Source: an uncultured cyanobacterium
GTDB taxonomy: Bacteria > Cyanobacteriota > Cyanobacteriia > Cyanobacteriales > CAWCAG01
DNA: 64,000 nucleotides
Direction: 5' to 3'
Assembly: GCA_963803805.1 (NCBI GenBank)
Contig: CAWDOD010000007.1
Span: 17,040-81,039 of the forward strand
Under the pieces are notes generated by a model. The model was not told the origin of the DNA. It made no database searches and was given only the letters and a program-made list of their open reading frames with translations. How positions within the stretch are numbered: position 1 is the first letter of the stretch; the number at the start of each line of letters is the position of its first letter. Position numbers and translations under genes: made by a program. Below are positions 67-33,673 of the stretch, piece after piece.

Positions 67-3000
67 ATGATGAGCAATACTACATTTCTTCCTAACTATC
101 AAATCACAGAGCAAATTTACAATGGTAATAGAACTGTAGTTTATCGGGGGATTTGTGCTGATTCCCAAAAGCCTGTAATCATTAAACTACTCAAAAAAGC
201 ATACCCTACCTTTGCTGAACTAGTACAATTTCGCAATCAGTATTTAATAACTAAGAATATTCAGATAGAGGGCATTGTCCAACCTATTGCTTTAGAAAGT
301 TGTGGTAATGGTTTGGCTTTAATAATGGAAGATGATGGCAGTATTTCTCTGAGTGAAGAATTGAAAAGTAGGGCAGATCAGAGGATTTCCCTGGAAGAAT
401 TTTTGACCATTGCTATCAAGCTAACTAAAATTCTCGAAGGACTATACCACAATCGTATTATTCACAAAGATATTAAACCGGCTAATATTCTGATTCATCC
501 CCAAACTAAGCAAGTTAAGTTAATTGATTTTCGTATCGCCACTTTACTACCAAAAGAACAACAAGAAATCCAAAATCCAAACGTCTTAGAGGGAACCCTT
601 GCTTACATTTCTCCCGAACAAACTGGCAGGATGAATCGAGGTATTGACTATCGCAGTGATTATTATTCATTGGGAGTAACTTTTTATCAACTACTAAGTG
701 GAAAATTACCATATGAGAGTGATGATGTTATGGAATTGGTGCATTGTCATATTGCAAAAACGGCTTTGCCGTTAGGGAGGAGTGAGGAGGGAGGAGGGAG
801 CAGTAAGATTCCTGGAGTGGTTGAGGATATTGTGATGAAGTTGATGGCGAAGAATGCTGAAGATCGCTATCAGAGTGCTTTGGGGTTGAAATATGATTTG
901 CAAAAGTGCTGGCAGCAGTGGCAGGAAACGGGTGACATTGAGCCTTTTGAATTGGGAGAGAGGGATATTGGCGATCGCTTCCTTGTCCCCGAAAAACTCT
1001 ACGGTAGGGAAACCGAAGTTGCCCAATTACTTGCTACATTTGAACGGGTTGCCGTTGGGAAGGTAGAAATAGCCCTGGTGGCAGGATTTTCTGGCATCGG
1101 TAAAACTGCTGTTGTTAATGAAGTTCACAAGCCCATTGTGCGGCAAAGAGGTTATTTCATTAAGGGGAAATTTGACCAATTCAACCGTAACACTCCCTTT
1201 TCTGCCTTTGTTCAAGCTTTTCGCGACTTGATGAATCAATTACTATCAGAAAGCGAAAGTCAGCTTGCACAGTGGAAAACCGAAATCCTTAATGCTTTGA
1301 GAGAAAACGCCCAAGTTATTGTTGAAGTTCTTCCTGAATTAGAAAGTATCATCGGAAAACAATCTCCCTGTGCTGAATTATCTGGAAGTGCGGCTCAAAA
1401 TCGCTTCAATTTACTCTTTAGCAAATTTATCCAAATCTTCACAACTGCTGCTCATCCTCTTGTGCTGTTTCTTGATGACTTGCAATGGGCAGACTCAGCA
1501 TCTCTTAGTCTCATGAAATTGTTGGTGGGAGAAACCGAAACAGGATATTTATTAGTATTGGGAGCCTATCGTAACAATGAAGTCTCCCCCACTCATCCCT
1601 TGATGTTAACCTTAGACGAGATCAAAAAAGATCAGGCAGTTGTTAACACGATCACCCTAGCACCTCTGAGTAAATTAGGATTAAATCATCTCGTTGCCGA
1701 CACCCTTGGTTGCAATCTTGAGTTGGCATCCCCCTTAACGCAACTAGTGTATCAAAAAACCCAAGGCAATCCCTTCTTTGCAACTCAATTGCTCAAATCT
1801 CTCCATGAAGGAAAATGGCTTTATTTTAACCCAAAATCAGGGCATTGGCAGTGTGAAATGGTGTCAGTAGGACAACTATCTTTAACAGAGGATGTTGTCG
1901 AGTTTATGGTGACTCAGTTACAGAAGTTACCCCTCCTAACTCAAGAATTATTGAAATTAGCCGCTTGCATTGGTAATCAGTTTGATCTAGAAACCTTGGG
2001 AATTATTTCTGAGCAATCCCCCACAGAAACAGCCACGAATTTGTGGAAAGCCCTGCAAGAAGGCTTAGTGTTGCCTACCAATGAAGTATACAAGTTCTAT
2101 CAATCTGAGGAAAATGCGAAAGTAATAGCGAATTTAGAGCATCGTGCAGCAAACTATAAGTTTCTGCACGACAGGGTTCAGCAAGCCGCTTATTCTCTCA
2201 TTCCAGAAGATCAAAAACAAACTACCCATTATCAAATTGGACGACTTTTCTTAGCTAAAATCTCTCCAGAAGAGCGAGGAAAACGGATTTTTGAGATAGT
2301 CAATCATTTGAATTTGGGCTTACCTTTAATCAAGGAAGTTGAAGAAAAGACTGAACTAGCCAACTTGAATTTAGCCGCAGCTTGCAAAGCCAAAGCCGCA
2401 ACTGCTTACCCTGCGGCTATCATCTATCTCAATACAGGAATTGAACTACTACCAGCAGATGTGTGGCAACACCACTACCAACTAGCCTTAGATTATCACA
2501 ATCTGATTGCAGAAGTGACTTTTTTGAATGGTAACTTTCTGGAAATGCACCAGTGGATTGACATTGTACAGCAACAAAGCAGAAGCTTATTAGATAAGGT
2601 CGAAGTTTACAAAACGCTGATTTCTGCCAAGATCGCCCAACAAAAGCTTTTAGAAGCCATTGAAGTGGGTTTACAAGCCCTTTCCCTGTTGGGTGTACAC
2701 TTACCAATCAAACCAACAGATGAAGATATTCAACAAGCACTGAAGAAAACAAATGCTCTAATTCCTGCCACCGGGATTTCCTCGCTATTTTCTTTGCCTT
2801 CTATTACTAACCCTAAGATTTTGGCGACGGTGCAAATCACCTCTACTTTAGCACCAGCAGCCTATATGGTAGGCTCTGGAGTATTTTTACTGATTGTGTT
2901 AGTAGAAATTCGTTTATCCATTAAGTATGGTAATTCTCCCATGTCTGCGGTTGCCTATGGTCACTATGGTATTGTCTTGTGTGGCATAATCAATGATATT

Positions 3001-6000
3001 GATGCTGGGTATCAATTCGGCAGACTTGCTCTGCACTCGGCAGAGCAAGGTCATGGCAAAACAATGAAGGCGAAAATTGCCTTTATTTTCGGGACGCTAA
3101 TTTCACCCTGGAAAAATCATCCTCAAGAAACACTTAAACTCCTGCAAACTTGCTATCAAGATGCTCTGGAAGCGGGAAGTCCAGAGATCGCCGCTTTTTG
3201 CCGCTACCATGATGCACAATCTTCCTATGCCATCGGGCAAGAATTATTTGTCTTAAAAAACAAGCTTGCTCTTTATAGCCAGCAAATTCGTCAAATCAAA
3301 CAAAAATTACACCTCAACTGGAATGAGCTATTGCGCCAAGTAGTTCTTAATCTCCAAGGAGCTTCTGACAATCCCTGTTGCTTAACCGGAGAGGCTATTA
3401 ATGAAGAACACCTTCTCGCCCAATACCAAAAAACTCAAAATGTCTTGGGTCTTTACAGCTTACACTTACATAAGCTTATTTTGTGCTATTTGTTTAACCG
3501 AGATGCTGATGCTTTAAACCATGCTCAAGCTGCCACTCAATATATCAGTGGAGGAACAGCACAGATTATAGTACCTCTGTTAGCCTTTTATAGCGCACTA
3601 ATACATTTGCGTGTCTGGTCTAATTTATCAGAAACTGAACAGGAGCATACACTTAAAAAAGTAATTGCTGAGCGGGAGAAGTTGCAAAGGTGGGCAGATC
3701 ATGCACCGATGAACTTTCAGCACAAAGTTGATTTAGTTGCGGCTGAGGAATATCGGGTTTTAGGCAATAAAATAGAAGCAATGGAAATGTATGATCACGC
3801 CATTGCTGGGGCTAAAGAAAACGCCTACATCCAAGACGAGGCCTTAGCTAACGAACTAGCTGCTAAATTCTACCTTAATTGGGGGAAAGAAACTATCGCC
3901 GAAGCTTATCTCACCAAAGCTTACTACTGCTATGTTCGCTGGGGAGCCAAAGCTAAAACTGACCACCTCGAACAAACCTATTCCCAATTGTTGCGTCCGA
4001 TTTTCCAGCAAACAGTACAAGTAATTAATCCCTTGGAAACTTTGGCAAACTTTGCTGTTACTACTGTTCCAGCTTCGGTACAAACCAATACTACTACCAA
4101 TATTGATACGGCCCTAGATTTTGCTACTCTCCTCAAAGCTTCTCAAAGCCTGTCCGGGACTATTCAAATCAATGAATTGCTCCATCAACTGAGCAAAATA
4201 ATTTTGCAACACTCCGGGGGCGATCGCTGTGCCTTAATTCTCCCTGATAGGGAGGAAAGTTGGCAAGTACGAACCATTGCAACACCAGAAAATACCGAAC
4301 TATGTGCCGATCCCATTGAGGGTAATAGCAACCTACCTGTTAAGTTGATTCAGTATGTCCGAAATACTCAAGAAGTGGTCGTAATTAACAATTGTCAAAC
4401 CGACTTGCCGGTTATAGACGAGTATCTTAGTCAGCAACAACCCAAAAGTGTCCTCTGTTTACCGATCCTCAATCAGAGTCATTTAATTGGCATTCTGTAT
4501 TTAAAAAACCGCCAGACTAGTGGTGTCTTTACCCAAGAGCGCATCCTCATCCTCAACTTCCTTTGCACCCAAGCTGCTATTTCCATTGAAAACGCTCGTC
4601 TCTATCAAGATTTAGAAAACTATTCCCAAAACCTAGAGCAAATAGTAAAAGAGCGCACTACTGCCCTCCAAGAAAGAGAAACTCGCCTGCGGCTGGCCTT
4701 GAGTGCAGCTAACCAAGGGTTTTTCGATATGAATATACATACTGATGAAGCTATTGTTAGCCCAGAATATGCTCTCATGCTGGGGTATGAGCCAACAACA
4801 TTCCAAGAAACAGTCACCGACTGGCGTAGCCGCTTGCATCCAGAGGATCAAAAACGAGTGAGTAAAGCCTATCAGGACTATGAAGCTGGCAAAACTCCCC
4901 AGTACGAAGTGGAATTTCGTCAGCGTAGTCAGCAGGGAGAGTGGAAATGGATTCTTGCTGTGGGGAAATTTATTGAGTGGGATGCAAACGGAAATCCCAC
5001 CAGGCTTTTAGGAACTCATACTGATATTAGCGATCGCAAACGAGCAGAAATAGACCTGCAAAATTTAATTGAAGGAACTGCTGCTACCATAGGACAGGAC
5101 TTTTTTCCTGCCTTAGTTAAGTATATTGCCGAAGCATTAAATGTTGACTACGCTGTGGTCACTGAACTAGCGAATGACAACCTCCATACTCTAGCCTTTT
5201 GGGGCAATAATTCTTTGCAACAGACTTTCTCCTATCGTCCGGTTAATACCCCCTGCGCCCTAGCCTTACAACATGGCAAGTTTTGTTGTGATCAGTTGAT
5301 TCAAGAACATTTCCCTGGGGATATAGACTTAGCAGCAATGGAGGTAGAGAGTTATTTGGGTATTGCCCTAGGAGATACCAATGGTAAATCAATTGGCAAC
5401 TTGTGTATCCTTAGCAAACAGCCTATCCAAAATCCTCAAAGAGCAGAACAAATCCTGCGCGTCTTTGCTGCACGGGCTGCGGCTGAATTGGAGCGTCAGC
5501 GGACGCAGACATCATTAGAGGAACTCAACCAAGCTTTAGAAACCAAGGTAGTGGAACTACAAGCAGCCAAAGAACAAGCAGATAGTGCTAATCGGGCTAA
5601 AAGTACTTTTCTGGCCAACATGAGTCACGAACTACGTACACCTCTCAACGGCATCCTTGGTTATACTCAAATATTGCAGCAGGAAAGTATCTTAGAAGGT
5701 AATCAACTTAAAGGCATTCAAACCATCCATCAATGTGGTAGCCATCTCCTTGACTTGATCAACGATATCCTTGACTTGAGTAAAATCGAAGCCCAAAAAA
5801 TGGAGTTACAGCCCAGGGAAATAAATTTCTCCATTTTCTTAAACACCATAGTGGAAATGTTTCGCCTCAAAGCCCAACAAAAAGGAATTGATTTTATCTA
5901 TCAAGAATTACAACAACTTCCTAGTGTTATCTATGGTGACGAAAAGCGGTTGCGTCAAGTAATTATTAATCTCCTTGGCAATGCTATCAAATTCACTCTA

Positions 6001-6993
6001 CGGGGAAAGGTAACATTTTCTGTGGAAGTTCTAGCCCAGGAAGGGAACAATCCCCGCCAATTATCTCCTACCACCCTGCGGTTCCAAGTGCAAGACACAG
6101 GAGTAGGCATGAGTTCAGAACAACTAGAAAAAATCTTCCTCGCCTTTGAACAAGTGGGAGAACATAACCAAAAGCAAGAGGGAACAGGTTTAGGGTTAGC
6201 AATTTCCCAAAAATTGGTGAGGATGATGGATACACAGATTAAAGTTAATAGTGAGTTAGGACAAGGAAGTACATTTTGGTTTGAGGTATCCTTACCTGGT
6301 GGTTGGCAACAAAATAATCAAAGGTTCAACACGAGACAAAAGCACCCGGTTGGTTATCAAGGTAGAACTCGTAAAATTCTTATTATTGATGATCGCCCAG
6401 AAACCCTCGATATTATCAGCAATGTTTTGCAGCCCCTCAACTTTGTCATAGTCACTGCTGAAAATGGGCAACAGGGCTTAGAAACTGCCCTGCAAGAAAC
6501 TCCTGATTTGATGATTAGCGATATTAAAATGCCTGTAATGGATGGTTGGGAAATGATTTCTCAACTCAGGGAGTATAAGCAATTTAAAAAATTACCGATT
6601 CTTGTCATATCCGCTAGTGCGATGCTCAGGGATTGTCATCAAACTCAAGAATACGGTGCCACCGACTTTTTGCCTAAACCATTGGTAATAGAAGATTTGC
6701 TGGGTAAAATAGGAAATTACCTGGAATTAGAATGGCTCTACCAACAACAAGCAGCAAGGGCAATGGACTCCCCAGAAGTTGTCACTACAGCAATGGCGAT
6801 TCCTCATGGGGAAATATTAGAAAAACTGGATAATTTGGCTAAAAGTGGGCTTTTGTTCGATCTCACAGAAGAACTTAATTTAATTGTGGCTAGCAATGAA
6901 CAATTCACTCCTTTCTGCCAAAAAATACAGAAATGGGTTGATAAGTTTGACAGCAAGAAGATTCAGGCATTTCTAAGTTCCTATATTTCTTGA
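67..6993 (+). CDS. HstK-type multidomain sensor: N-terminal Ser/Thr protein kinase, P-loop NTPase (GFSGIGKT), TPR-like helical region, GAF, PAS, HisKA, HATPase, receiver, plus a ~120-aa C-terminal tail
   Basis: 2308-aa ORF. Kinase subdomain motifs present: VIIK, HKDIKPANI, DFR (a DFG variant), SPEQ. GAF motif: [14 protein letters not shown] repeat ending in DISDRKRAE. H-box [10 protein letters not shown]-boxes in NLLGNAIKF and GTGLGLAIS. Receiver motifs ILIIDD and ISDIKMP. Confidence 0.85.
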   Translation: MMSNTTFLPNYQITEQIYNGNRTVVYRGICADSQKPVIIKLLKKAYPTFAELVQFRNQYLITKNIQIEGIVQPIALESCGNGLALIMEDDGSISLSEELKSRADQRISLEEFLTIAIKLTKILEGLYHNRIIHKDIKPANILIHPQTKQVKLIDFRIATLLPKEQQEIQNPNVLEGTLAYISPEQTGRMNRGIDYRSDYYSLGVTFYQLLSGKLPYESDDVMELVHCHIAKTALPLGRSEEGGGSSKIPGVVEDIVMKLMAKNAEDRYQSALGLKYDLQKCWQQWQETGDIEPFELGERDIGDRFLVPEKLYGRETEVAQLLATFERVAVGKVEIALVAGFSGIGKTAVVNEVHKPIVRQRGYFIKGKFDQFNRNTPFSAFVQAFRDLMNQLLSESESQLAQWKTEILNALRENAQVIVEVLPELESIIGKQSPCAELSGSAAQNRFNLLFSKFIQIFTTAAHPLVLFLDDLQWADSASLSLMKLLVGETETGYLLVLGAYRNNEVSPTHPLMLTLDEIKKDQAVVNTITLAPLSKLGLNHLVADTLGCNLELASPLTQLVYQKTQGNPFFATQLLKSLHEGKWLYFNPKSGHWQCEMVSVGQLSLTEDVVEFMVTQLQKLPLLTQELLKLAACIGNQFDLETLGIISEQSPTETATNLWKALQEGLVLPTNEVYKFYQSEENAKVIANLEHRAANYKFLHDRVQQAAYSLIPEDQKQTTHYQIGRLFLAKISPEERGKRIFEIVNHLNLGLPLIKEVEEKTELANLNLAAACKAKAATAYPAAIIYLNTGIELLPADVWQHHYQLALDYHNLIAEVTFLNGNFLEMHQWIDIVQQQSRSLLDKVEVYKTLISAKIAQQKLLEAIEVGLQALSLLGVHLPIKPTDEDIQQALKKTNALIPATGISSLFSLPSITNPKILATVQITSTLAPAAYMVGSGVFLLIVLVEIRLSIKYGNSPMSAVAYGHYGIVLCGIINDIDAGYQFGRLALHSAEQGHGKTMKAKIAFIFGTLISPWKNHPQETLKLLQTCYQDALEAGSPEIAAFCRYHDAQSSYAIGQELFVLKNKLALYSQQIRQIKQKLHLNWNELLRQVVLNLQGASDNPCCLTGEAINEEHLLAQYQKTQNVLGLYSLHLHKLILCYLFNRDADALNHAQAATQYISGGTAQIIVPLLAFYSALIHLRVWSNLSETEQEHTLKKVIAEREKLQRWADHAPMNFQHKVDLVAAEEYRVLGNKIEAMEMYDHAIAGAKENAYIQDEALANELAAKFYLNWGKETIAEAYLTKAYYCYVRWGAKAKTDHLEQTYSQLLRPIFQQTVQVINPLETLANFAVTTVPASVQTNTTTNIDTALDFATLLKASQSLSGTIQINELLHQLSKIILQHSGGDRCALILPDREESWQVRTIATPENTELCADPIEGNSNLPVKLIQYVRNTQEVVVINNCQTDLPVIDEYLSQQQPKSVLCLPILNQSHLIGILYLKNRQTSGVFTQERILILNFLCTQAAISIENARLYQDLENYSQNLEQIVKERTTALQERETRLRLALSAANQGFFDMNIHTDEAIVSPEYALMLGYEPTTFQETVTDWRSRLHPEDQKRVSKAYQDYEAGKTPQYEVEFRQRSQQGEWKWILAVGKFIEWDANGNPTRLLGTHTDISDRKRAEIDLQNLIEGTAATIGQDFFPALVKYIAEALNVDYAVVTELANDNLHTLAFWGNNSLQQTFSYRPVNTPCALALQHGKFCCDQLIQEHFPGDIDLAAMEVESYLGIALGDTNGKSIGNLCILSKQPIQNPQRAEQILRVFAARAAAELERQRTQTSLEELNQALETKVVELQAAKEQADSANRAKSTFLANMSHELRTPLNGILGYTQILQQESILEGNQLKGIQTIHQCGSHLLDLINDILDLSKIEAQKMELQPREINFSIFLNTIVEMFRLKAQQKGIDFIYQELQQLPSVIYGDEKRLRQVIINLLGNAIKFTLRGKVTFSVEVLAQEGNNPRQLSPTTLRFQVQDTGVGMSSEQLEKIFLAFEQVGEHNQKQEGTGLGLAISQKLVRMMDTQIKVNSELGQGSTFWFEVSLPGGWQQNNQRFNTRQKHPVGYQGRTRKILIIDDRPETLDIISNVLQPLNFVIVTAENGQQGLETALQETPDLMISDIKMPVMDGWEMISQLREYKQFKKLPILVISASAMLRDCHQTQEYGATDFLPKPLVIEDLLGKIGNYLELEWLYQQQAARAMDSPEVVTTAMAIPHGEILEKLDNLAKSGLLFDLTEELNLIVASNEQFTPFCQKIQKWVDKFDSKKIQAFLSSYIS

Positions 6994-19479: not shown

Positions 19480-21516
19480 ATGTCCAATCGTCTTGCCCAA
19501 ACCGACAGCCTCTACCTACAAAAACACGCTGATAATCCTATTGATTGGTGGCCTTGGTGTGATGAGGCTTTAGAAACTGCTCAACAAGAGAATCGCCCGA
19601 TCTTCCTTTCTGTAGGTTATTCTAGCTGTCATTGGTGTACTGTTATGGAAGGAGAGGCCTTTTCAGATGCTGCGATCGCCGCTTATATGAATGCTAATTT
19701 TTTACCGATTAAAGTAGATCGTGAAGAAAGGCCGGACTTAGATAGTATTTATATGCAAGCGTTGCAAATGATGACAAGTCAGGGGGGTTGGCCTCTGAAT
19801 ATTTTTCTAACTCCTGATGAACGCATCCCTTTTTATGGCGGCACTTATTTCCCCGTAGAACCCCGTTATGGTCGTCCGGGCTTTTTGGAGGTATTACGCT
19901 CTATACGACGCTTTTATGACGTAGAGAAGGAAAAGCTGGCGGGGTTTAAGCAAGAAATCATGAAGGGGTTGCAGCAAGGAACTGTTATTGTTCCTAATCC
20001 CCCCGGTTCCTTAACCAAAGAACTATTGCAACAGGGTATTGAAAATAATACTCGCGTCATTAGTGGCCCTAATTATGCCCCTAATTTCCCCATGATGCCC
20101 TACACTCAACTGGCTTTGCAAGGAGGTTGGTTAACTTCTCAAGGAGAAGCCGTTACCCCGGCAGCTTTGAAAAGAGGTAGTGATTTGGCCAAGGGAGGGA
20201 TTTATGACCATGTGGGAGGAGGTTTTCATCGCTATACCGTAGATGCAACCTGGACAGTACCTCACTTTGAAAAGATGCTCTATGATAATGGACAGATTGT
20301 GGAATTTCTGGCTAATCTTTGGAGTGGGGGAGTACAAGAACCTGCTTTTAAAAGAGCGATTACCGGAACGGTGCAATGGCTGAAGCGGGAAATGACTGCC
20401 CCGGAAGGCTACTTTTATGCAGCCCAGGATGCTGATAATTTTGTAACCCCAGAAGAAGTGGAACCGGAGGAGGGGGCTTTTTATGTTTGGAGTCACGAAG
20501 AGTTACAGCAATTGCTAACCCCAGAGGAGCTTGCAGCCTTAGAAGCAAGATTTACGATTTCTGCCCCAGGTAACTTTGAAGGTAAAAATGTTTTGCAGCG
20601 TCGGGATGTAGCTGAATTTCCTGAAGAGGTAGAAGAGATTCTCACTAAGTTGTTTGCTGTACGATATGGTAAGAAGTTTGCATCAGAGGAAACTTTCACC
20701 CCGGCGAGGAATAATCAAGAAGCGAAAAGTAACAATTGGGCTGGTAGAATTCCTCCTGTCACTGATACGAAGATGATTGTAGCTTGGAATAGTTTAATGA
20801 TTTCTGGTTTGGCAAGAGCTTATGGTGTTTTTGGTGAACAGGAATATTTAGATTTAGCAGTTAGGGCAACTAACTTTATTCTGGAAAATCAGTGGCTGAG
20901 GGAACGCTTTCATCGTCTTAATTATGAAGGGAAAGTTGCGGTTTTGGCACAATCAGAAGATTATGCTTTGTTTATTAAAGCTTTGTTAGATTTGCAAGCA
21001 GTCTCTCCCCAGAATACAACTTGGTTAGACAAAGCGGTAGAAATACAAGAAGAATTTGATCACCTGCTTTGGTGTTTGGAAATGGGGGGATACTTCAATA
21101 CTGCACCGGATGGCAGCAAAGACTTACTGATCAAAGAACGTAGTTATTTAGATAACGCCACCCCCGCAGCTAATGGAGTTGCGATCGCTAATTTGATGCG
21201 TTTAGCTTTGTTAAAGGAAGATAAAGATTATCAAGATAGGGCAGAACAAGCTTTACAAGCATTTGCTAGTGTAATGAGTAAATCACCCACTGCTTGCCCC
21301 AGTTTATTTTCCGCTTTAGATTGGTTTTTTCATGGTGCTTTGATTCAAGCCAAAGCAGAACAACTTCAAACCTTTATTCCCCAGTACTTACCAACTTGTG
21401 CTTATCAAGTGGATGCTAATTTACCAGAAGAGATTTTTGGTTTAGTTTGTCGAGATTTTGTTTGCCTCAAGCCAGCAAAAAGTTGGCAGGAATTGAAGAA
21501 GCAAATTATTAATTAA
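19480..21516 (+). CDS. Thioredoxin-domain protein (DUF255 / YyaL-like) fused to an N-acylglucosamine-2-epimerase-like alpha/alpha-toroid
   Basis: 678 aa. The N-terminus WWPWCDEA ... GYSSCHWCTVME is the DUF255 signature. Confidence 0.8.
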   Translation: MSNRLAQTDSLYLQKHADNPIDWWPWCDEALETAQQENRPIFLSVGYSSCHWCTVMEGEAFSDAAIAAYMNANFLPIKVDREERPDLDSIYMQALQMMTSQGGWPLNIFLTPDERIPFYGGTYFPVEPRYGRPGFLEVLRSIRRFYDVEKEKLAGFKQEIMKGLQQGTVIVPNPPGSLTKELLQQGIENNTRVISGPNYAPNFPMMPYTQLALQGGWLTSQGEAVTPAALKRGSDLAKGGIYDHVGGGFHRYTVDATWTVPHFEKMLYDNGQIVEFLANLWSGGVQEPAFKRAITGTVQWLKREMTAPEGYFYAAQDADNFVTPEEVEPEEGAFYVWSHEELQQLLTPEELAALEARFTISAPGNFEGKNVLQRRDVAEFPEEVEEILTKLFAVRYGKKFASEETFTPARNNQEAKSNNWAGRIPPVTDTKMIVAWNSLMISGLARAYGVFGEQEYLDLAVRATNFILENQWLRERFHRLNYEGKVAVLAQSEDYALFIKALLDLQAVSPQNTTWLDKAVEIQEEFDHLLWCLEMGGYFNTAPDGSKDLLIKERSYLDNATPAANGVAIANLMRLALLKEDKDYQDRAEQALQAFASVMSKSPTACPSLFSALDWFFHGALIQAKAEQLQTFIPQYLPTCAYQVDANLPEEIFGLVCRDFVCLKPAKSWQELKKQIIN

Positions 21517-27937: not shown

Positions 27938-28095
27938 CCTGACGGCTTAAATGTGATATTATAACTCCCGTCGGTTCTAACGGGGAGCAGTCGTTAGAGG
28001 TAAGGGGGAAAGTTCGGTGTAAACCCGGCACTGTCCCGCAACTGTGAAGAAACTAGGTAGATAAGGTTTCTAAGTCAGAATGCCCGCCGATTGTT
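27938..28095 (+). ncRNA. Cobalamin (B12) riboswitch
   Basis: Core AGGGGGAAAGTTCGGTGTAAACCCGGCACTGTCCCGCAACTGTGA matches the B12-box consensus (GGTG..AA.CC ... GCCACTG..CCCGCAACTGT). 3' element AGTCAGAATGCCCGCC. Lies upstream of hupE/ureJ-cobW. Confidence 0.7.
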
Positions 28096-28303
28096 ACAGC
28101 TTAAAATCAAGATTCATCTGCGAGGTACGGATGTTACAACAAGTAAATCAATCTTACGAGAAAAATCTTAAGCTCAGATACAGATTTTCCTCAAGTAATT
28201 CCTAAATTGCTGGTTAGTGAACTTGTTTAGCCATAAACGAAACTTTGTAAAAATGAATTAAAACAGTTGCTGTAACAAGAAACAACTGTCTCTTTTATTA
28301 AGT

Positions 28304-29011
28304 ATGGAGATGTCCAATCTCTATTACTTATCAACGACCAATTTATTTACTAAAAATATGAACAAACAAACAAAATTTCCTGGGCTAACTCAACTTTCAC
28401 CTTTAGTTATCGCCACAATCTTATTAGCATTATTCAACTGTCTATTAATAGCTAATCCTGCCGCAGCACACCATCCCTTTGGTGGTACAACTCCCACCAA
28501 TTTATCACAAGGATTTCTTTCTGGTTTAGGGCATCCAGTTATTGGTATAGACCACTTTATTTTTACCGTTGCTATTGGCTTATTAGCTGCTTTAAGAAAA
28601 CCCCAAGGTATATTCATTGCCGTTGCTTTTATCTTAGCTACTCTAGGGGGAACAGGACTACATTTAATGGGTTTAGATTTGCCTTTTCCTGAAACAGCGA
28701 TCGCCACTTCTGTTTTAGTTATTGGCTTGATGTTGGGATTAAAAAACAATCTCAATTTAATCGCTATAGTAGTTGCCGCAGCATTAGGGGGAATATTCCA
28801 CGGTTACGCCTACGGAGAAGCCATTGTTGGGGCAGAAATGACTCCTTTAATTGCTTACTTAACAGGCTTTGCTTCCATTCAATTAGTAGTAGCCTTAACC
28901 GCCTACCAAATCAGTACAATCATGTTCAATAAATTTGCTGAACAATTTGAATTGTATTTGCGCTTTGCTGGCTTTACTATCTTAGGTATGGGAACAGCTT
29001 TTCTCTTTTAA
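28304..29011 (+). CDS. hupE: HupE/UreJ-family metal (cobalt/nickel) transporter
   Basis: Signal peptide, then HHPFGG. About 6 TM helices with conserved His (GHPVIGIDHF, FHGYAYGEA). The true start is probably the internal Met near 28358. Confidence 0.75.
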   Translation: MEMSNLYYLSTTNLFTKNMNKQTKFPGLTQLSPLVIATILLALFNCLLIANPAAAHHPFGGTTPTNLSQGFLSGLGHPVIGIDHFIFTVAIGLLAALRKPQGIFIAVAFILATLGGTGLHLMGLDLPFPETAIATSVLVIGLMLGLKNNLNLIAIVVAAALGGIFHGYAYGEAIVGAEMTPLIAYLTGFASIQLVVALTAYQISTIMFNKFAEQFELYLRFAGFTILGMGTAFLF

Positions 29012-29069: not shown

Positions 29070-30104
29070 ATGCACAAAATTCCTGTCACAGTTGTAACCG
29101 GCTTTCTCGGCGCTGGTAAAACCACCTTAGTACGTCATTTATTACAAAACAATCAAGGACGAAAAATAGCCGTTCTAGTTAACGAATTTGGTGAAGTTGG
29201 TATAGATGGGGACTTGTTGCGTTCCTGTCAAATTTGCGACGATGAATCTGAACCAGAAAATAATATTGTCGAACTTACCAACGGCTGCCTTTGCTGTACT
29301 GTTCAAGAAGAATTTTATCCTACTATGCAAGAACTATTAAAAAGGCAGGATAAAATTGATTGCTTGCTAGTAGAAACGTCGGGTTTAGCCCTTCCTAAAC
29401 CTTTAATTAAAGCCTTCCGGTGGCCAGAAATTCGTAATGGTGCAACAGTGGATGGGGTAGTTACTGTGGTTGATTGTCAGGCACTGGCAGAAGGGACTTT
29501 GGTAGGGGATTTAGAAGCCCTGGAAGCCCAGCGAAAAGAAGATCCTAACCTAGACCACGAAACTCCTATTGAAGAACTGTTTGAAGACCAGCTAGCTTGT
29601 GCAGATTTGGTATTGCTAACCAAGGTGGATCAGGTGGATGAGGCAAGCAGAATTAAGGTTGAAAAATGGTTGCAACAAGAATTACCCAAGGGAGTTAAAA
29701 TCGTCCCTTGCAACCAGGGAGAAGTTAGTCCAGAAGTCTTACTTGGTTTCAATGCTGCGGTGGAAGATAATCTCGAAACTCGCCCTAGTCACCATGACAC
29801 TGAAGAAGATCATGAACATGATGAGGAAATTAATTCAGTACAGTTAGTTTTAGAAAAAAGTTTTGAACCAAAAACCTTGATTAGTAAATTAAAAACCTTG
29901 GTACAAGCAGAGGAAATTTATCGGGTTAAGGGTTTTGTAGATGTTCCCAACAAACCTATGCGTTTGGTATTACAAGGAGTAGGAAATCGCTTCGATTCGT
30001 TTTATGATCGACCTTGGGAAACTAAAGAACTTCGTCAAACTAGGTTAGTAGTAATTGGTCGCAACCTTAACCAGGGGAAAATAGAACAAGCTATCCTTAA
30101 TTAA
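29070..30104 (+). CDS. cobW: CobW-family (COG0523) GTPase metallochaperone with His/Asp/Glu-rich linker
   Basis: P-loop GFLGAGKTT. GCLCCT metal-binding motif. Linker HHDTEEDHEHDEE. Position downstream of the B12 riboswitch. Confidence 0.8.
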   Translation: MHKIPVTVVTGFLGAGKTTLVRHLLQNNQGRKIAVLVNEFGEVGIDGDLLRSCQICDDESEPENNIVELTNGCLCCTVQEEFYPTMQELLKRQDKIDCLLVETSGLALPKPLIKAFRWPEIRNGATVDGVVTVVDCQALAEGTLVGDLEALEAQRKEDPNLDHETPIEELFEDQLACADLVLLTKVDQVDEASRIKVEKWLQQELPKGVKIVPCNQGEVSPEVLLGFNAAVEDNLETRPSHHDTEEDHEHDEEINSVQLVLEKSFEPKTLISKLKTLVQAEEIYRVKGFVDVPNKPMRLVLQGVGNRFDSFYDRPWETKELRQTRLVVIGRNLNQGKIEQAILN

Positions 30105-30111
30105 GGAAAAA

Positions 30112-30183
30112 GCCGATGGAGGGATTTGAACCCACGACCCATCGCTTACGAAGCGATCGCTCTACCACTGAGCTACATCGGCA
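30112..30183 (-). tRNA. tRNA-Thr (anticodon CGU), canonical, CCA not encoded
   Basis: Folded by hand: acceptor GCCGATG/CATCGGC, D GCTC/GAGC, anticodon stem ATCGC/GCGAT with loop TTCGTAA, T arm GTGGG-TTCAAAT-CCCTC. 72 nt. Confidence 0.85.
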
Positions 30184-31235: not shown

Positions 31236-32777
31236 TCACTCCTGTTTGATGCGGATTAAGTCTGTCAAAATGCTATCCAAACTGCCATTAACTTGAATTT
31301 TATCAATCTTCTCAGCAATTCTTTCTAAAACTTCTAACTCCTTCAAACGTAACGCCACAGGATTATTTTCCATAACCTTCGCTGTGTTTAACATACTGCG
31401 AGTTGCGGCAGTTTCTTCTCGGCGGCGAATTACGTTAGCTTGAGCTGATTTTTCCGCTTCAACAACTTGGGACAAAATATTTTTAATTTCCCCAGGAAGG
31501 ATAATATCTTTCACACCCACAGAATCAACTTTAATGCCATACTCAGCAGTTTTTTCTTTAATGTAACTGGCGATCACATTATCGATTTGTCCTTTATCTT
31601 CTAACAAAGAATCCAACGTTTTCTCCCCAACCGCAGCCCGTAGTGCAAATTGTAATTCCTTGTACAAATAACCCTTAATATCAGATAAATGATTCTTGGC
31701 TGTGAGGGGATCAATAATGCGAAAACCTGCCATTAAATTCAAGCGTAAAGGCACTTTATCCTGAGAAAGAATATCCTGTCCAGAAACTTCTAGGGTTTGC
31801 TGACGCAGATCAAAAACTTCTGTTTGCCAACTACGCCCAAAATTCCACCAGGCATGAATACCTGCTGGCAATGTCTCGTGAAATTCTTTATTAATATACA
31901 ACAAGCCGATATGTTGGGGAGGAATTTCACAAATATGTAAAGATGGATAGCTTAATTTAACAGTTTCCGGCAACCCAGATACCAACTCTGTCACTAAGTG
32001 GGGTGGTAACTTAGCCTCGTTGCTAATGTCAATTTCTTCCACTTTAACCCCTTGCCAAAAGAGTTTGCGACTACAAGGAGGTAAAATACTAATCACTTTA
32101 TTGCGATCGCGGACAATAGCTACATCATCCGTTGCTAATTCTACAATCTCACAATAAGCTGCCACAAAATCGGGATGTTTTTCAATTAACAACTCCTCAA
32201 GGGGAAATGTCGGATTCGGTAGCATCCTACTCATGGTTTGCACAACAACATTGCGATCAAAACTCCAAAAGCTGTACTCACCAGGTTCCAAAGGTTTAAC
32301 AAAATCATTCTGTACAAACAGCAAGCCAATTTGGTATTCAGCAATGAGAACTTTCTTCAAGCCATTTACTACCACTCCACGAAGTCTCTGTACGAATGAT
32401 GCTGGTAATTCTAAGCTTTCATCTAAATTGAAAAGATAGGATTCAACCTCAATAAAACCACGCCAAAACGCCACCAATTGGTTAGGGGCAACACTCAGCC
32501 ACCAATTTTGTCCCAAACGTACTAAGGCAGCTTGATTAAAACTTGTCCTAACTACTAACAAATGATCTTGTAATGCCGCAAAGTGGTTCCGCAGCAGCAA
32601 TTCCAGGTTCTCAATCTCAGCTTCAGGTTCATTGAGATCATAAACTCTAACTTGCCAATGCCAACCGAAATAACGGTAAGTCCCCGGTTGCAAAATCTGC
32701 TTGAAATCGCTGCGATGATACAAAATCCCCATTTCATTGGGTTTGATATAAAATGTTTTCCACATAGAGAGTGTCAA
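31236..32777 (-). CDS. SPFH/Band-7 domain protein with two extra N-terminal partial SPFH N-lobe repeats
   Basis: C-terminal ~220 aa align to the SPFH consensus (FDLRQQ ... GIKVDSVGVKDIILPGEIKNIL). Repeats: EMGILYHRSDFKQILQPGTYRYF / QIGLLFVQNDFVKPLEPGEYSFW / QHIGLLYINKEFHETLPAGIHAWW. Confidence 0.7.
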   Translation of the reverse strand: MTLSMWKTFYIKPNEMGILYHRSDFKQILQPGTYRYFGWHWQVRVYDLNEPEAEIENLELLLRNHFAALQDHLLVVRTSFNQAALVRLGQNWWLSVAPNQLVAFWRGFIEVESYLFNLDESLELPASFVQRLRGVVVNGLKKVLIAEYQIGLLFVQNDFVKPLEPGEYSFWSFDRNVVVQTMSRMLPNPTFPLEELLIEKHPDFVAAYCEIVELATDDVAIVRDRNKVISILPPCSRKLFWQGVKVEEIDISNEAKLPPHLVTELVSGLPETVKLSYPSLHICEIPPQHIGLLYINKEFHETLPAGIHAWWNFGRSWQTEVFDLRQQTLEVSGQDILSQDKVPLRLNLMAGFRIIDPLTAKNHLSDIKGYLYKELQFALRAAVGEKTLDSLLEDKGQIDNVIASYIKEKTAEYGIKVDSVGVKDIILPGEIKNILSQVVEAEKSAQANVIRRREETAATRSMLNTAKVMENNPVALRLKELEVLERIAEKIDKIQVNGSLDSILTDLIRIKQE

Positions 32778-33189
32778 TTAAATATTGACGGCTAAGGGGG
32801 TAAGGGGCAAAAGGTATTACTTATTACTTCTCCCCATCTCCGTAAGTCCTATAAATTTGTTTTTTGTAGTATCCATAATACAGAAGATTTTTAAACTCTG
32901 CAAGCAGGTGGGTTGCAGTTCAGTTGCGGGCTAATGGTTCTCCTTAACTGGATTAAGAATGTCTTACAGGAGGCTTTGCCAAAATTACCCTTGGGCATTT
33001 CTGACAAAAACGTACTACATTCAAATATGCCGTTCCTTAAACCTTGCTGACATCCTTCTTAGGGGAATACAGAAGGCAAACGAAGGGACATACTCAAGTT
33101 AAGGAGGGGGGCATTAACACTGGCTTCTTCCCTGTTGTAACTCCTACCCACGAAGCAATAGAAAGTTACAAGCACCTACATTGCAGAGT

Positions 33190-33265
33190 TTACTAAACAT
33201 AACGGACTCGAACCGTCTGAGGATTTCTCCCGTACCAGATTTTGAGCTAAACGCTCCCTTGACCA
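33190..33265 (-). other. tRNA-like remnant (T-arm GACGG-TTCGAGT-CCGTT present, no pairing acceptor stem)
   Basis: Minus-strand sequence carries a consensus T-arm, but the flanks cannot form a 7-bp acceptor helix. Confidence 0.25.
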
Positions 33266-33298
33266 CAACAAGGCGCCTATTAACCCTGGCAGGGGTGT

Positions 33299-33372
33299 TT
33301 AAAAGTACAGGAATTGAACCTGTTACCGATCGATTATGAGTCGATTGCTCTAACCAAATGAGCTAACTTTTT
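33299..33372 (-). tRNA. Atypical tRNA-like gene, anticodon CAU (Met/Ile-type), A/T-only acceptor stem with A1·A72 mismatch, no encoded CCA
   Basis: Minus-strand fold: AAAAAGT TA GCTC ATTTGGTTA GAGC A ATCGA CTCATAA TCGAT CGGTA ACAGG TTCAATT CCTGT ACTTTTA A. D, anticodon and T arms are all perfect. Confidence 0.5.
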
Positions 33373-33374
33373 GG

Positions 33375-33448
33375 TGTTTGATGTAGGAGTCGAACCTACC
33401 CTCGCCGATAGAGACATCGGCTGCTCTCACCAACTGAGCTAATCAAAC
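33375..33448 (-). tRNA. Atypical tRNA-like gene with an 8-nt anticodon loop (or a 6-bp stem with 6-nt loop), 2 nt downstream of the CAU tRNA-like gene
   Basis: Minus-strand fold: GTTTGAT TA GCTC AGTTGGTGA GAGC A GCCGA TGTCTCTA TCGGC GAGG GTAGG TTCGACT CCTAC ATCAAAC A. Acceptor and T arms are perfect. The anticodon loop is non-canonical. Confidence 0.5.
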
Positions 33449-33673
33449 GGTGAAACTAGCGACAATTGCAACTGCGGTATACGCTCAAGCCAAAGGTTGG
33501 CGCACCCGTTGGGCATACGGAACCCAAACGATAGCACTGCAACGTACTACTACCTCACTACTTAATATAACACGAGATAAAATTACTTGATTTAAGTTTT
33601 TTTACTGATAGCAATTCTATTGGTTTACTGTATAAAACATTACGCCCTCACCAGCACCTAAAAAATACTGTCC

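Follow-up and report, generated by a model that had tools for sequence, protein, structure and literature searches.

Why should a cyanobacterium keep tRNA-shaped genes whose anticodon loops do not look like those of a tRNA? The question is raised by a 64,000-nt stretch of DNA from an uncultured member of the Cyanobacteriales (assembly GCA_963803805.1, contig CAWDOD010000007.1, positions 17,040 to 81,039), which we refer to as the window. Between two open reading frames of the window, a GT4 glycosyltransferase gene upstream and a slipin gene downstream, lies a gap of 896 bp (32778-33673) in which the longest open reading frame has at most 52 aa. In this gap, on the same minus strand as both neighbours, sit two tRNA-like genes:

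33372-33448, minus strand: tRNA-like A, including an encoded CCA (cloverleaf 33375-33448); found by ARAGORN and by the Rfam model RF00005 (52.6 bits), with orthologues in 7 loci
33299-33372, minus strand: tRNA-like B; found by RF00005 (61.9 bits) and by ARAGORN as tRNA-Met(CAU)

The two cloverleaves had first been folded by hand, in an initial annotation made from the letters alone, and both programs call them at exactly those coordinates, with RF00005 scores above the gathering score of 29. We propose that A and B are probably conserved tRNA mimics, carried in a vertically inherited noncoding RNA unit of ~0.7 kb upstream of slipin that is induced by stress and silenced by the repressor TrcR. 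The unit consists of a structured leader, A, B, linker hairpins, an optional third tRNA-like unit (C) and a structured domain of ~300 nt.

The comparison behind these statements covers the 7 lineages whose slipin locus was available: the window itself, whose organism is placed by best hits only, near Spirulinaceae and Lusitaniella; L091 and L092, both metagenomic, with a slipin identity of 78-80%; L099, a metagenome-assembled genome (MAG); L103, a 778-kb contig (AJLN01000116); L111, the chromosome of Chroococcidiopsis thermalis PCC 7203; and L093, of the Anabaena/Nostoc PCC 7120 type, where the unit is found in modified form. Alignments of 5-7 of these genomes were used for the layout of the unit.

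A conserved tRNA body with a free anticodon loop

The acceptor stem of A, GUUUGAU/AUCAAAC, keeps all of its 7 pairs, the G1-C72 pair included, in 7/7 genomes, with a discriminator base that varies. All that remains of A in Anabaena is a long hairpin, in which GUUUGAU/AUCAAAC persists. The anticodon stem is kept as well, with differing sequences (GCCGA/UCGGC, UCCGA/UCGGA, GCCGA/UCGGU and CCUGC/GCGGG). In the window, GCCGA/UCGGC surrounds UGUCUCUA, an arm that can be drawn, as the hand folding had it, with either 5 bp in the stem and 8 nt in the loop or 6 bp and 6 nt; ARAGORN reports the gene at 33372-33448 as 'tRNA-???' with a 2-base anticodon.

The loop itself is non-canonical in all six genomes where A retains an anticodon arm, ranges from 5 to 9 nt, and differs in both length and sequence: UGUCUCUA, UAGAAUCG, (U)GAGAUCU(A), AUUUGAU, AAGUCAU and (C)UGUAU(G), with anticodons read by ARAGORN as ??, gaat, GAU (Ile), UUG (Gln), GUC (Asp) and GUA (Tyr). 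A frame with U33 and a purine at 37 is present in none of the six loops, and no single-base deletion creates one in the A of the window. A sequencing error or a single-base lesion was rejected as the origin of the 8-nt loop, since each orthologue has a non-canonical loop of its own. Because the loop differs, and is non-canonical, in every genome, it is not a frameshift device either; it is simply unconstrained. Consistent with this, its mean pairwise identity (0.34) is that of a neutrally evolving sequence (0.38 at silent sites of slipin).

The loop was also followed outside these loci. When this 8-nt loop, set in tRNA surroundings, was searched for as an exact pattern, viruses gave no match and metagenomes one, a phage-like contig with a truncated half of an unrelated tRNA. 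No kissing-loop partner covarying with the variable loop of A was found, the best complements falling at different alignment columns in each genome. A pairing between the acceptor strand of A and the slipin start was also considered, given a match of UAUAUCAAAC at 32741-32750 (repeat D11); it is not conserved in L091 and is therefore regarded as a coincidence.

One feature of the initial description has to be revised. Neither gene was thought to encode CCA; A, however, is followed by A-C-C-A (33375-33372), which ARAGORN includes in the gene, and the last A of this CCA is nucleotide 1 of B. CCA-like tails thus follow A in the window, and they follow B in 5 relatives.

Turning to B, it has a tRNA-Met-like body with 35% G+C, the loop CUCAUAA and just one G-C pair in its acceptor stem. 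The A1·A72 mismatch noted at the outset and the A/U-rich stem that contains it are visible in the Infernal alignment, and many tRNA-Met genes of bacteria and phages share 85-90% identity with the core. The loop is CUCAUAA in 4 genomes, CUGUUAA in Anabaena and the non-canonical UGUAUCG in 2 (L099 and L111), all on an unchanged body; ARAGORN reads CAU, GUU or UAU. In all loci examined, position 1-72 is mismatched, as A·A, C·A, C·U or C·C. Elongator tRNAs accepted by EF-Tu are paired at 1-72, whereas the bacterial initiator tRNA is kept off this factor by having the position unpaired.

Thus, A and B are not ordinary decoding tRNAs, because the loop of A is neutral, the loop of B switches on an unchanged body, and B never has a 1-72 pair. 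Since the anticodon loops are not maintained, a role as spare decoding tRNAs is unlikely.

A related observation concerns the B orthologue of L093 (1906-1981), which standard tools call tRNA-Asn(GUU). It shares the B body, carries a C1·U72 mismatch and has no G73, the base that AsnRS requires, and its status as a housekeeping tRNA-Asn may be questioned.

The cloverleaves are part of a structured RNA unit

Four further elements surround A and B on the minus strand:

33449-33553, minus strand: structured 5' leader (RNAalifold, 6-7 genomes), whose weaker outer stem encloses hairpins at 33506-33531 and 33479-33505
33256-33298, minus strand: linker with two small hairpins (RNAalifold), the second with 4 compensatory pairs
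33190-33255, minus strand: element C, a reduced third tRNA-like unit, recognized by alignment with the third cloverleaf of L103
32893-33191, minus strand: structured RNA domain of ~300 nt, from its fold and from covariation in the 7-genome alignment

The leader is detected by nhmmer in 7/7 loci, and its two hairpins are 97-100% paired with 2 compensatory pairs each. Across leader, A, B and linker together, 96.7% of the alignment cells are paired, against 32-43% when the partners are slid, with 15 compensatory pairs against 1-6 in the slid controls. The ~300-nt domain is closed by a 19-bp helix with a perfect 12-nt inverted repeat. As a single sequence it folds at -106.3 kcal/mol (z = -5.45); in the 7-genome alignment its 94 pairs are 92.1% paired (36-42% when slid) and include 32 compensatory pairs, compared with 3-12 in slid alignments and a number reached by 0/500 shuffles. 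Searches of Rfam with the leader, element C and the domain returned no family.

Element C had initially been described, at 33190-33265, as keeping only a T-arm. The T-arm-like hairpin (33201-33217) is indeed there, as is TAGCTCA, and C also has a D-arm remnant (GAGC-GUUUA-GCUC) and a GGGA-GAAA-UCC hairpin (33220-33231). It has no RF00005 match even at E<=10; it is nevertheless not a random fragment, for it aligns with a full cloverleaf in L103 (2348-2423; called by ARAGORN and by RF00005 at 45.2 bits). The same reduced form is found in L091 and L099, and the element is missing from L092, L111 and L093.

How much of this is held by selection can be judged against the slipin gene. At its four-fold degenerate sites the mean pairwise identity is 0.38 (0.29-0.35 for the window against the others), that is, these sites are saturated. 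The corresponding values are 0.78 for the body of A, 0.83 for B, 0.73 for the leader and 0.66 for the ~300-nt domain. All parts of the unit are under purifying selection at the level of RNA structure, and its recurrence with compensatory base changes in 7/7 lineages is more than chance.

These data bear directly on the simplest explanation, namely that the genes are decaying tRNA pseudogenes or phage or plasmid debris without function, with the 8-nt loop as a recent lesion or base-calling error. Such an origin would suit the A/U-rich acceptor stems and low G+C of B, which are like those of many phage tRNAs, the degenerate look of element C, and the break in gene order at the gap relative to the upstream gene. 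It is already contradicted, however, by bodies that remain 78-83% identical while silent sites are saturated, by the compensatory changes and near-complete pairing of the stems, and by the non-canonical loops in all orthologues, which make the 8-nt loop no one-off error. An import from mobile elements was rejected, as BLAST gives only generic similarity to tRNA-Met or tRNA-Lys. The plasmid search with the ~300-nt domain had no match, the junction pattern of the unit is absent from viral contigs, and none of the plasmids or phages searched carries the A-B pair or the domain. We therefore regard the pseudogene explanation as highly improbable.

The RNA unit travels with slipin

The unit lies directly upstream of slipin, in the same orientation, in 7/7 lineages.

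31236-32765, minus strand: slipin (SPFH/Band 7), from the open reading frame list; homologues carry PF01145, and the N-terminus is conserved in 7 loci

The start of slipin that is backed by homology is the ATG at 32765 (MWKTFYIK...), to which the conserved ATG of all homologues and of a 509-aa database protein corresponds; the mechanically derived reading frame begins at a TTG at 32777. Many slipin homologues in databases are called as 528 aa and are thereby extended into the conserved RNA region upstream.

On the other side of the unit the genes are different in every genome, so the conserved entity is the RNA unit plus slipin. In particular, the upstream glycosyltransferase was rejected as a partner. 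No tRNA was found within 6 kb of it in any of 80 genome loci (64-70% identity) or of 7 closer ones, the latter being Spirulinaceae MAGs (84-88% identity) whose downstream genes differ from those of the window; in these 87 loci centred on the glycosyltransferase, the GMD-GT pair alone is syntenic. Within the unit, the identities of domain and leader rise with that of slipin (r = 0.63-0.68), which fits vertical co-inheritance.

In L099 and L103, domain and slipin are separated by unrelated inserts of 300-400 nt. That of L099 (about 2620-2950) contains 3-4 tandem copies of a ~83-nt repeat (AAAAATTCGGTAGGTAGGGGCGGGTTTTACC...), to which the insert at the same place in L103 is unrelated.

Some neighbours on the variable side are recorded here for completeness. 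Just upstream of the unit, L099 has two paralogous small genes of the ribbon-helix-helix (ParG-like) type (433-660 and 1002-1217); TrcR is also a ribbon-helix-helix protein. With these two genes as queries, tblastn found no TrcR-like ribbon-helix-helix gene in the window. In L111, and in this one genome only, a ParE toxin gene and a 347-aa reverse transcriptase gene (RVT_1; 1170-2213) precede the unit, the latter ending 178 nt before tRNA-like A and about 80 nt before the leader.

A predicted promoter, TrcR-type boxes and co-regulation in Anabaena

Two putative regulatory sites flank the unit:

33544-33572, minus strand: predicted promoter of the RNA unit, with repeats (GTAGTGA and GTAGTAGTAC) after an extended -10 element, TG-n-TATATT (33572-33564)
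32865-32882: composite TrcR-type box, TGTATTAT-gg-ATACTACA as read on the minus strand

Transcription from the predicted promoter would start near 33556-33558, about 110 nt upstream of A. The promoter coincides with the 5' edge of cross-species conservation in the alignment; a simple promoter scan did not call it. Its layout, TGTTATAT-taa-GTAGTGA-gg-TAGTAGTAC, recalls that of the trn promoter, TGTAGTAT-ata-TGTAGTGA, a match between short motifs that is suggestive only, and also resembles the TrcR half-site TGTATTAC. In every locus the composite box stands at this position, after the RNA domain and before slipin; its 8-mers agree with the TrcR motifs of the literature, TGTAGTAT and ATACTACACTTGTATTAC, and it probably marks the promoter/operator of slipin. 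Exact copies of TGTAGTAT occur only twice in the 64 kb, and one of them is in this box, 2 nt from TGTATTAT. The other (77-84, minus strand) overlaps, in antisense, the first codons of an open reading frame of 2308 aa (67-6993) and is probably there by chance. Tandem TrcR-type boxes were also seen at 21090-21105, inside a coding sequence.

Regulation by TrcR has been studied in Anabaena. There the gene order is all0737 (NTRC), alr0738, the RNA unit, alr0739 and alr0740, the last being the slipin orthologue, with the unit on the forward strand in the alr0738-alr0739 interval. Deletion of trcR derepresses alr0739 72-fold and alr0740 42-fold, TrcR binds the alr0739 promoter, and it also silences the plasmid trn array, rtcB and rsgA through sites that resemble TGTAGTAT and overlap the -10 box (PMC10272220). 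Long noncoding RNAs were, as stated there, outside the analysis of that paper (PMC10272220). To confer induction by chloramphenicol, it is enough to have two repeats in tandem that cover the -10 box and the start site (PMC8421152). Furthermore, in a strain grown with erythromycin, alr0739/alr0740, rtcB, all8564 and the array change together, and the most changed feature of Supplementary Table 2 is a probe named 'alr0738_igFwd, intergenic' (log2 fold change -2.41) (PMC9938897). The interval of this probe is the place of the unit in L093. The link to translational stress in Anabaena that the initial annotation had suggested is thus real, though indirect, as the region and the slipin operon change together with the trn array and rtcB (PMC9938897); the transcript evidence consists of this one probe and is indirect.

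Could the whole unit instead belong to the slipin mRNA, as a long 5' leader acting in cis, whose cloverleaves and ~300-nt domain control slipin expression, for example through stabilization that depends on processing or by sensing a tRNA-binding factor? The constant position immediately upstream of slipin, in the same orientation, would suit such a role, as would the lack of any strong or convincing intrinsic terminator between unit and slipin. Set against this are the conserved promoter/operator-like TrcR box between domain and slipin in all loci, the unrelated inserts before slipin in L099 and L103, and the whole extra gene, alr0739, that stands between domain and slipin in Anabaena. Moreover, the binding of TrcR to the 'alr0739 promoter' fragment implies a separate mRNA start. 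On balance, we think it unlikely that the unit serves as a slipin leader.

Relation to the tRNA array of the Anabaena delta plasmid

The initial annotation likened the locus to the cryptic tRNA operon of the Anabaena delta plasmid (the L-array). As far as the genes themselves are concerned, its description holds: they are aberrant, tightly packed and tRNA-like, and probably co-transcribed. The likeness to the array extends to two points and, tentatively, to a third. Both loci have co-oriented tRNA-shaped genes 0-9 nt apart, presumably on one precursor (PMC8421152, PMC10272220); the orthologous interval of Anabaena and its slipin change with the array and rtcB, and TrcR represses the slipin operon as well; and similar TGTAGTAT-type repeats, short motifs in both cases, may lie near the -10 region.

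Kinship, by contrast, was not borne out. The best match of A or B to the 24 tRNAs that ARAGORN calls on the delta plasmid covers 51/74 positions, about as many as with the tRNA-Thr of the window (47-48/74), and nhmmer profiles of A and B gave only generic tRNA-level hits to them (E 3e-9 or weaker). Homology with, and membership in, the array were therefore rejected. Some traits given for the array in the initial annotation also need qualification: its tRNAs are indeed closely spaced (1-123 nt, mostly < 10 nt), whereas at least 9 of the 24 encode CCA and ARAGORN flags no 4-base anticodon among them.

The two systems differ in further respects. Cyanobacterial L-arrays comprise some 20 to 43 tRNA genes that cover most isotypes, and the array of Anabaena has 24-26 units; here there are 2 cloverleaves and 1 reduced unit, and at most 3 units in relatives. 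The array is plasmid-borne and patchy, whereas the cluster of the window is chromosomal, syntenic and vertically inherited. L-arrays are linked to an HNH endonuclease, and the direct neighbours of the cluster are a GT4 glycosyltransferase and slipin; and the array is without the structured leader and ~300-nt RNA domain that flank A and B. Finally, 23/26 array tRNAs are aminoacylated in vivo, while the anticodon loops of A and B are unconstrained.

We consider it quite improbable, then, that the locus is a miniature or remnant operon of the array type that supplies decoding tRNAs under stress, perhaps with an 8-nt-loop frameshifter among them. Tight, co-oriented packing, the CCA-like tails, the co-regulation of the orthologous region with the array, and a B loop that is canonical in 4 genomes (CUCAUAA) and in Anabaena (CUGUUAA) would all be accommodated by such an operon. 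What it does not accommodate is the merely generic similarity to the array tRNAs, the small number of units (2-3, not 20-40) in a chromosomal locus co-inherited with slipin, an 'anticodon' of A that differs everywhere and never stands in a U33/purine-37 frame, and a B that lacks the 1-72 pair everywhere.

A possible role for the tRNA mimics

Having set these alternatives aside, we return to the proposal that A and B are tRNA mimics in a regulated RNA unit. In outline, the unit would be transcribed from its own predicted promoter and kept silent by TrcR; inhibition of translation would induce it together with slipin and rtcB, and with the long tRNA array in genomes that have one. What the cloverleaves retain of a tRNA is the parts that are read by tRNA-handling enzymes, namely the acceptor/T-arm stack and the D/T elbow. 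Because exactly these parts are retained, a twofold role seems most likely. First, the cloverleaves may act as built-in cleavage signals for RNase P and RNase Z, releasing the leader, the tRNA-likes and the ~300-nt domain from one precursor. Second, once released, the tRNA-likes may mimic tRNAs without decoding, or act as decoys, towards stress factors that bind tRNA. A comparable idea, that array tRNAs could sponge toxin RNases, was raised as a speculation by the authors of the array study (PMC8421152).

At the anticodon position, 14 loops were compared, taken from the A, B and C units of five loci (the window, L099, L103, L111 and L093). The trinucleotide UGU occurs in 6 of them, where ~7-9% would be expected per random loop, although the events are not independent. 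The loops concerned are UGUCUCUA of A in the window, UGUAUCG (twice), CUGUAUG, CUGUUAA and UGUAUA. Both tRNA-guanine transglycosylase and the anticodon nucleases of the colicin E5 type recognize the motif U33-G34-U35.

A more speculative version can be put forward tentatively. The unit may represent a new class of noncoding RNA, a TrcR-controlled, translation-stress-induced precursor whose tRNA mimics, with an invariant acceptor stem and UGU-enriched free loops, would be decoys or cofactors for anticodon nucleases, RtcB or Tgt-like readers, and whose ~300-nt RNA would have a slipin-linked activity. We rate this version as possible but doubtful.

Several observations weigh against the proposal that A and B are TrcR-controlled, non-decoding mimics. 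In the window, the CAU loop of B is fully canonical and base 73 is A, so that MetRS could still charge B, which might decode. For the promoter and the TrcR boxes, the assignments depend on short AT-rich motifs and are suggestive; the first box of the promoter matches poorly in Anabaena, and copies of TGTAGTAT with at most one mismatch show no window-wide enrichment (46, against 48.8 expected). For lack of a strong terminator before slipin, a long 5' leader role is possible. Lastly, the site of the alr0738_igFwd probe within the 678-nt interval is not given, and its signal could partly be that of the alr0739 5' untranslated region.

Other features of the window

Two features outside the gap were noted. 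The canonical tRNA-Thr of the initial annotation is present (CGU; RF00005, 72.3 bits), at 30111-30182, one base off the original coordinates. On the plus strand, a cobalamin riboswitch (RF00174, 46.3 bits) occupies 27955-28105, upstream of a gene for a membrane protein of the HupE/UreJ-like kind (28304-29011) and of one for a CobW-type GTPase (29070-30104).

Significance and comparison with known systems

A tRNA body that has been under very long selection while its anticodon was released is a natural experiment in tRNA evolution, and it points to a tRNA function outside decoding. For the translational-stress response of cyanobacteria, which comprises TrcR, rtcB, the cryptic tRNA array and slipin, the unit would add an RNA component, and the most changed feature of a published Anabaena microarray, which had carried only the label 'intergenic', falls in its place. 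There is also a practical consequence, since standard tools call these genes tRNA-Met, Asn, Ile, Gln, Asp or Tyr and inventories of tRNA genes are thereby distorted. The locus is present in Anabaena PCC 7120 and Chroococcidiopsis PCC 7203, both culturable, the former also genetically tractable.

Text searches of the literature found no description of the unit, and it is instructive to compare it with systems that share one or another of its features. YrlA, a bacterial Y RNA-like tRNA mimic, was reportedly described by Chen et al. in 2014 from rsr-yrlBA-rtcBA operons. Like the unit, YrlA (RF02553) is a noncoding RNA with a tRNA-like, non-decoding module in a stress regulon, of which the RNA ligase RtcB is another member. 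The two are otherwise distinct. The cloverleaves of A and B are complete, anticodon arm included, and have an unrelated RNA domain as partner; the RF02553 match in the window reaches 19.2 bits (gathering score 69, E = 0.64) and covers no more than the T-arm of A plus the D-arm of B. A Ro60/Rsr gene is not among the immediate neighbours of the unit, the rest of the window and genome not having been screened for it.

Cloverleaves within longer transcripts can recruit RNase P and RNase Z and thereby define the ends of neighbouring RNAs, as in MALAT1-mascRNA. The mascRNA is eukaryotic, however, and processing at the unit is a prediction. For tRNA genes co-transcribed with a downstream gene, there is a bacterial precedent in thrU-tyrU-glyT-thrT-tufB of E. 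coli, with the difference that the tufB tRNAs are ordinary decoders.

Comparable to the ~300-nt domain are GOLLD and ROOL, large ornate bacterial RNAs that often lie beside tRNA genes, in prophages of Firmicutes or rumen bacteria. They share with the unit a large structured noncoding RNA domain directly beside tRNA-shaped genes. The domain of the window differs in that it matches neither of them in Rfam, is shorter (~300 nt) and resides on a cyanobacterial chromosome. With strong covariation and no Rfam counterpart, it is a candidate for, and stands a fair chance of being, a new RNA family.

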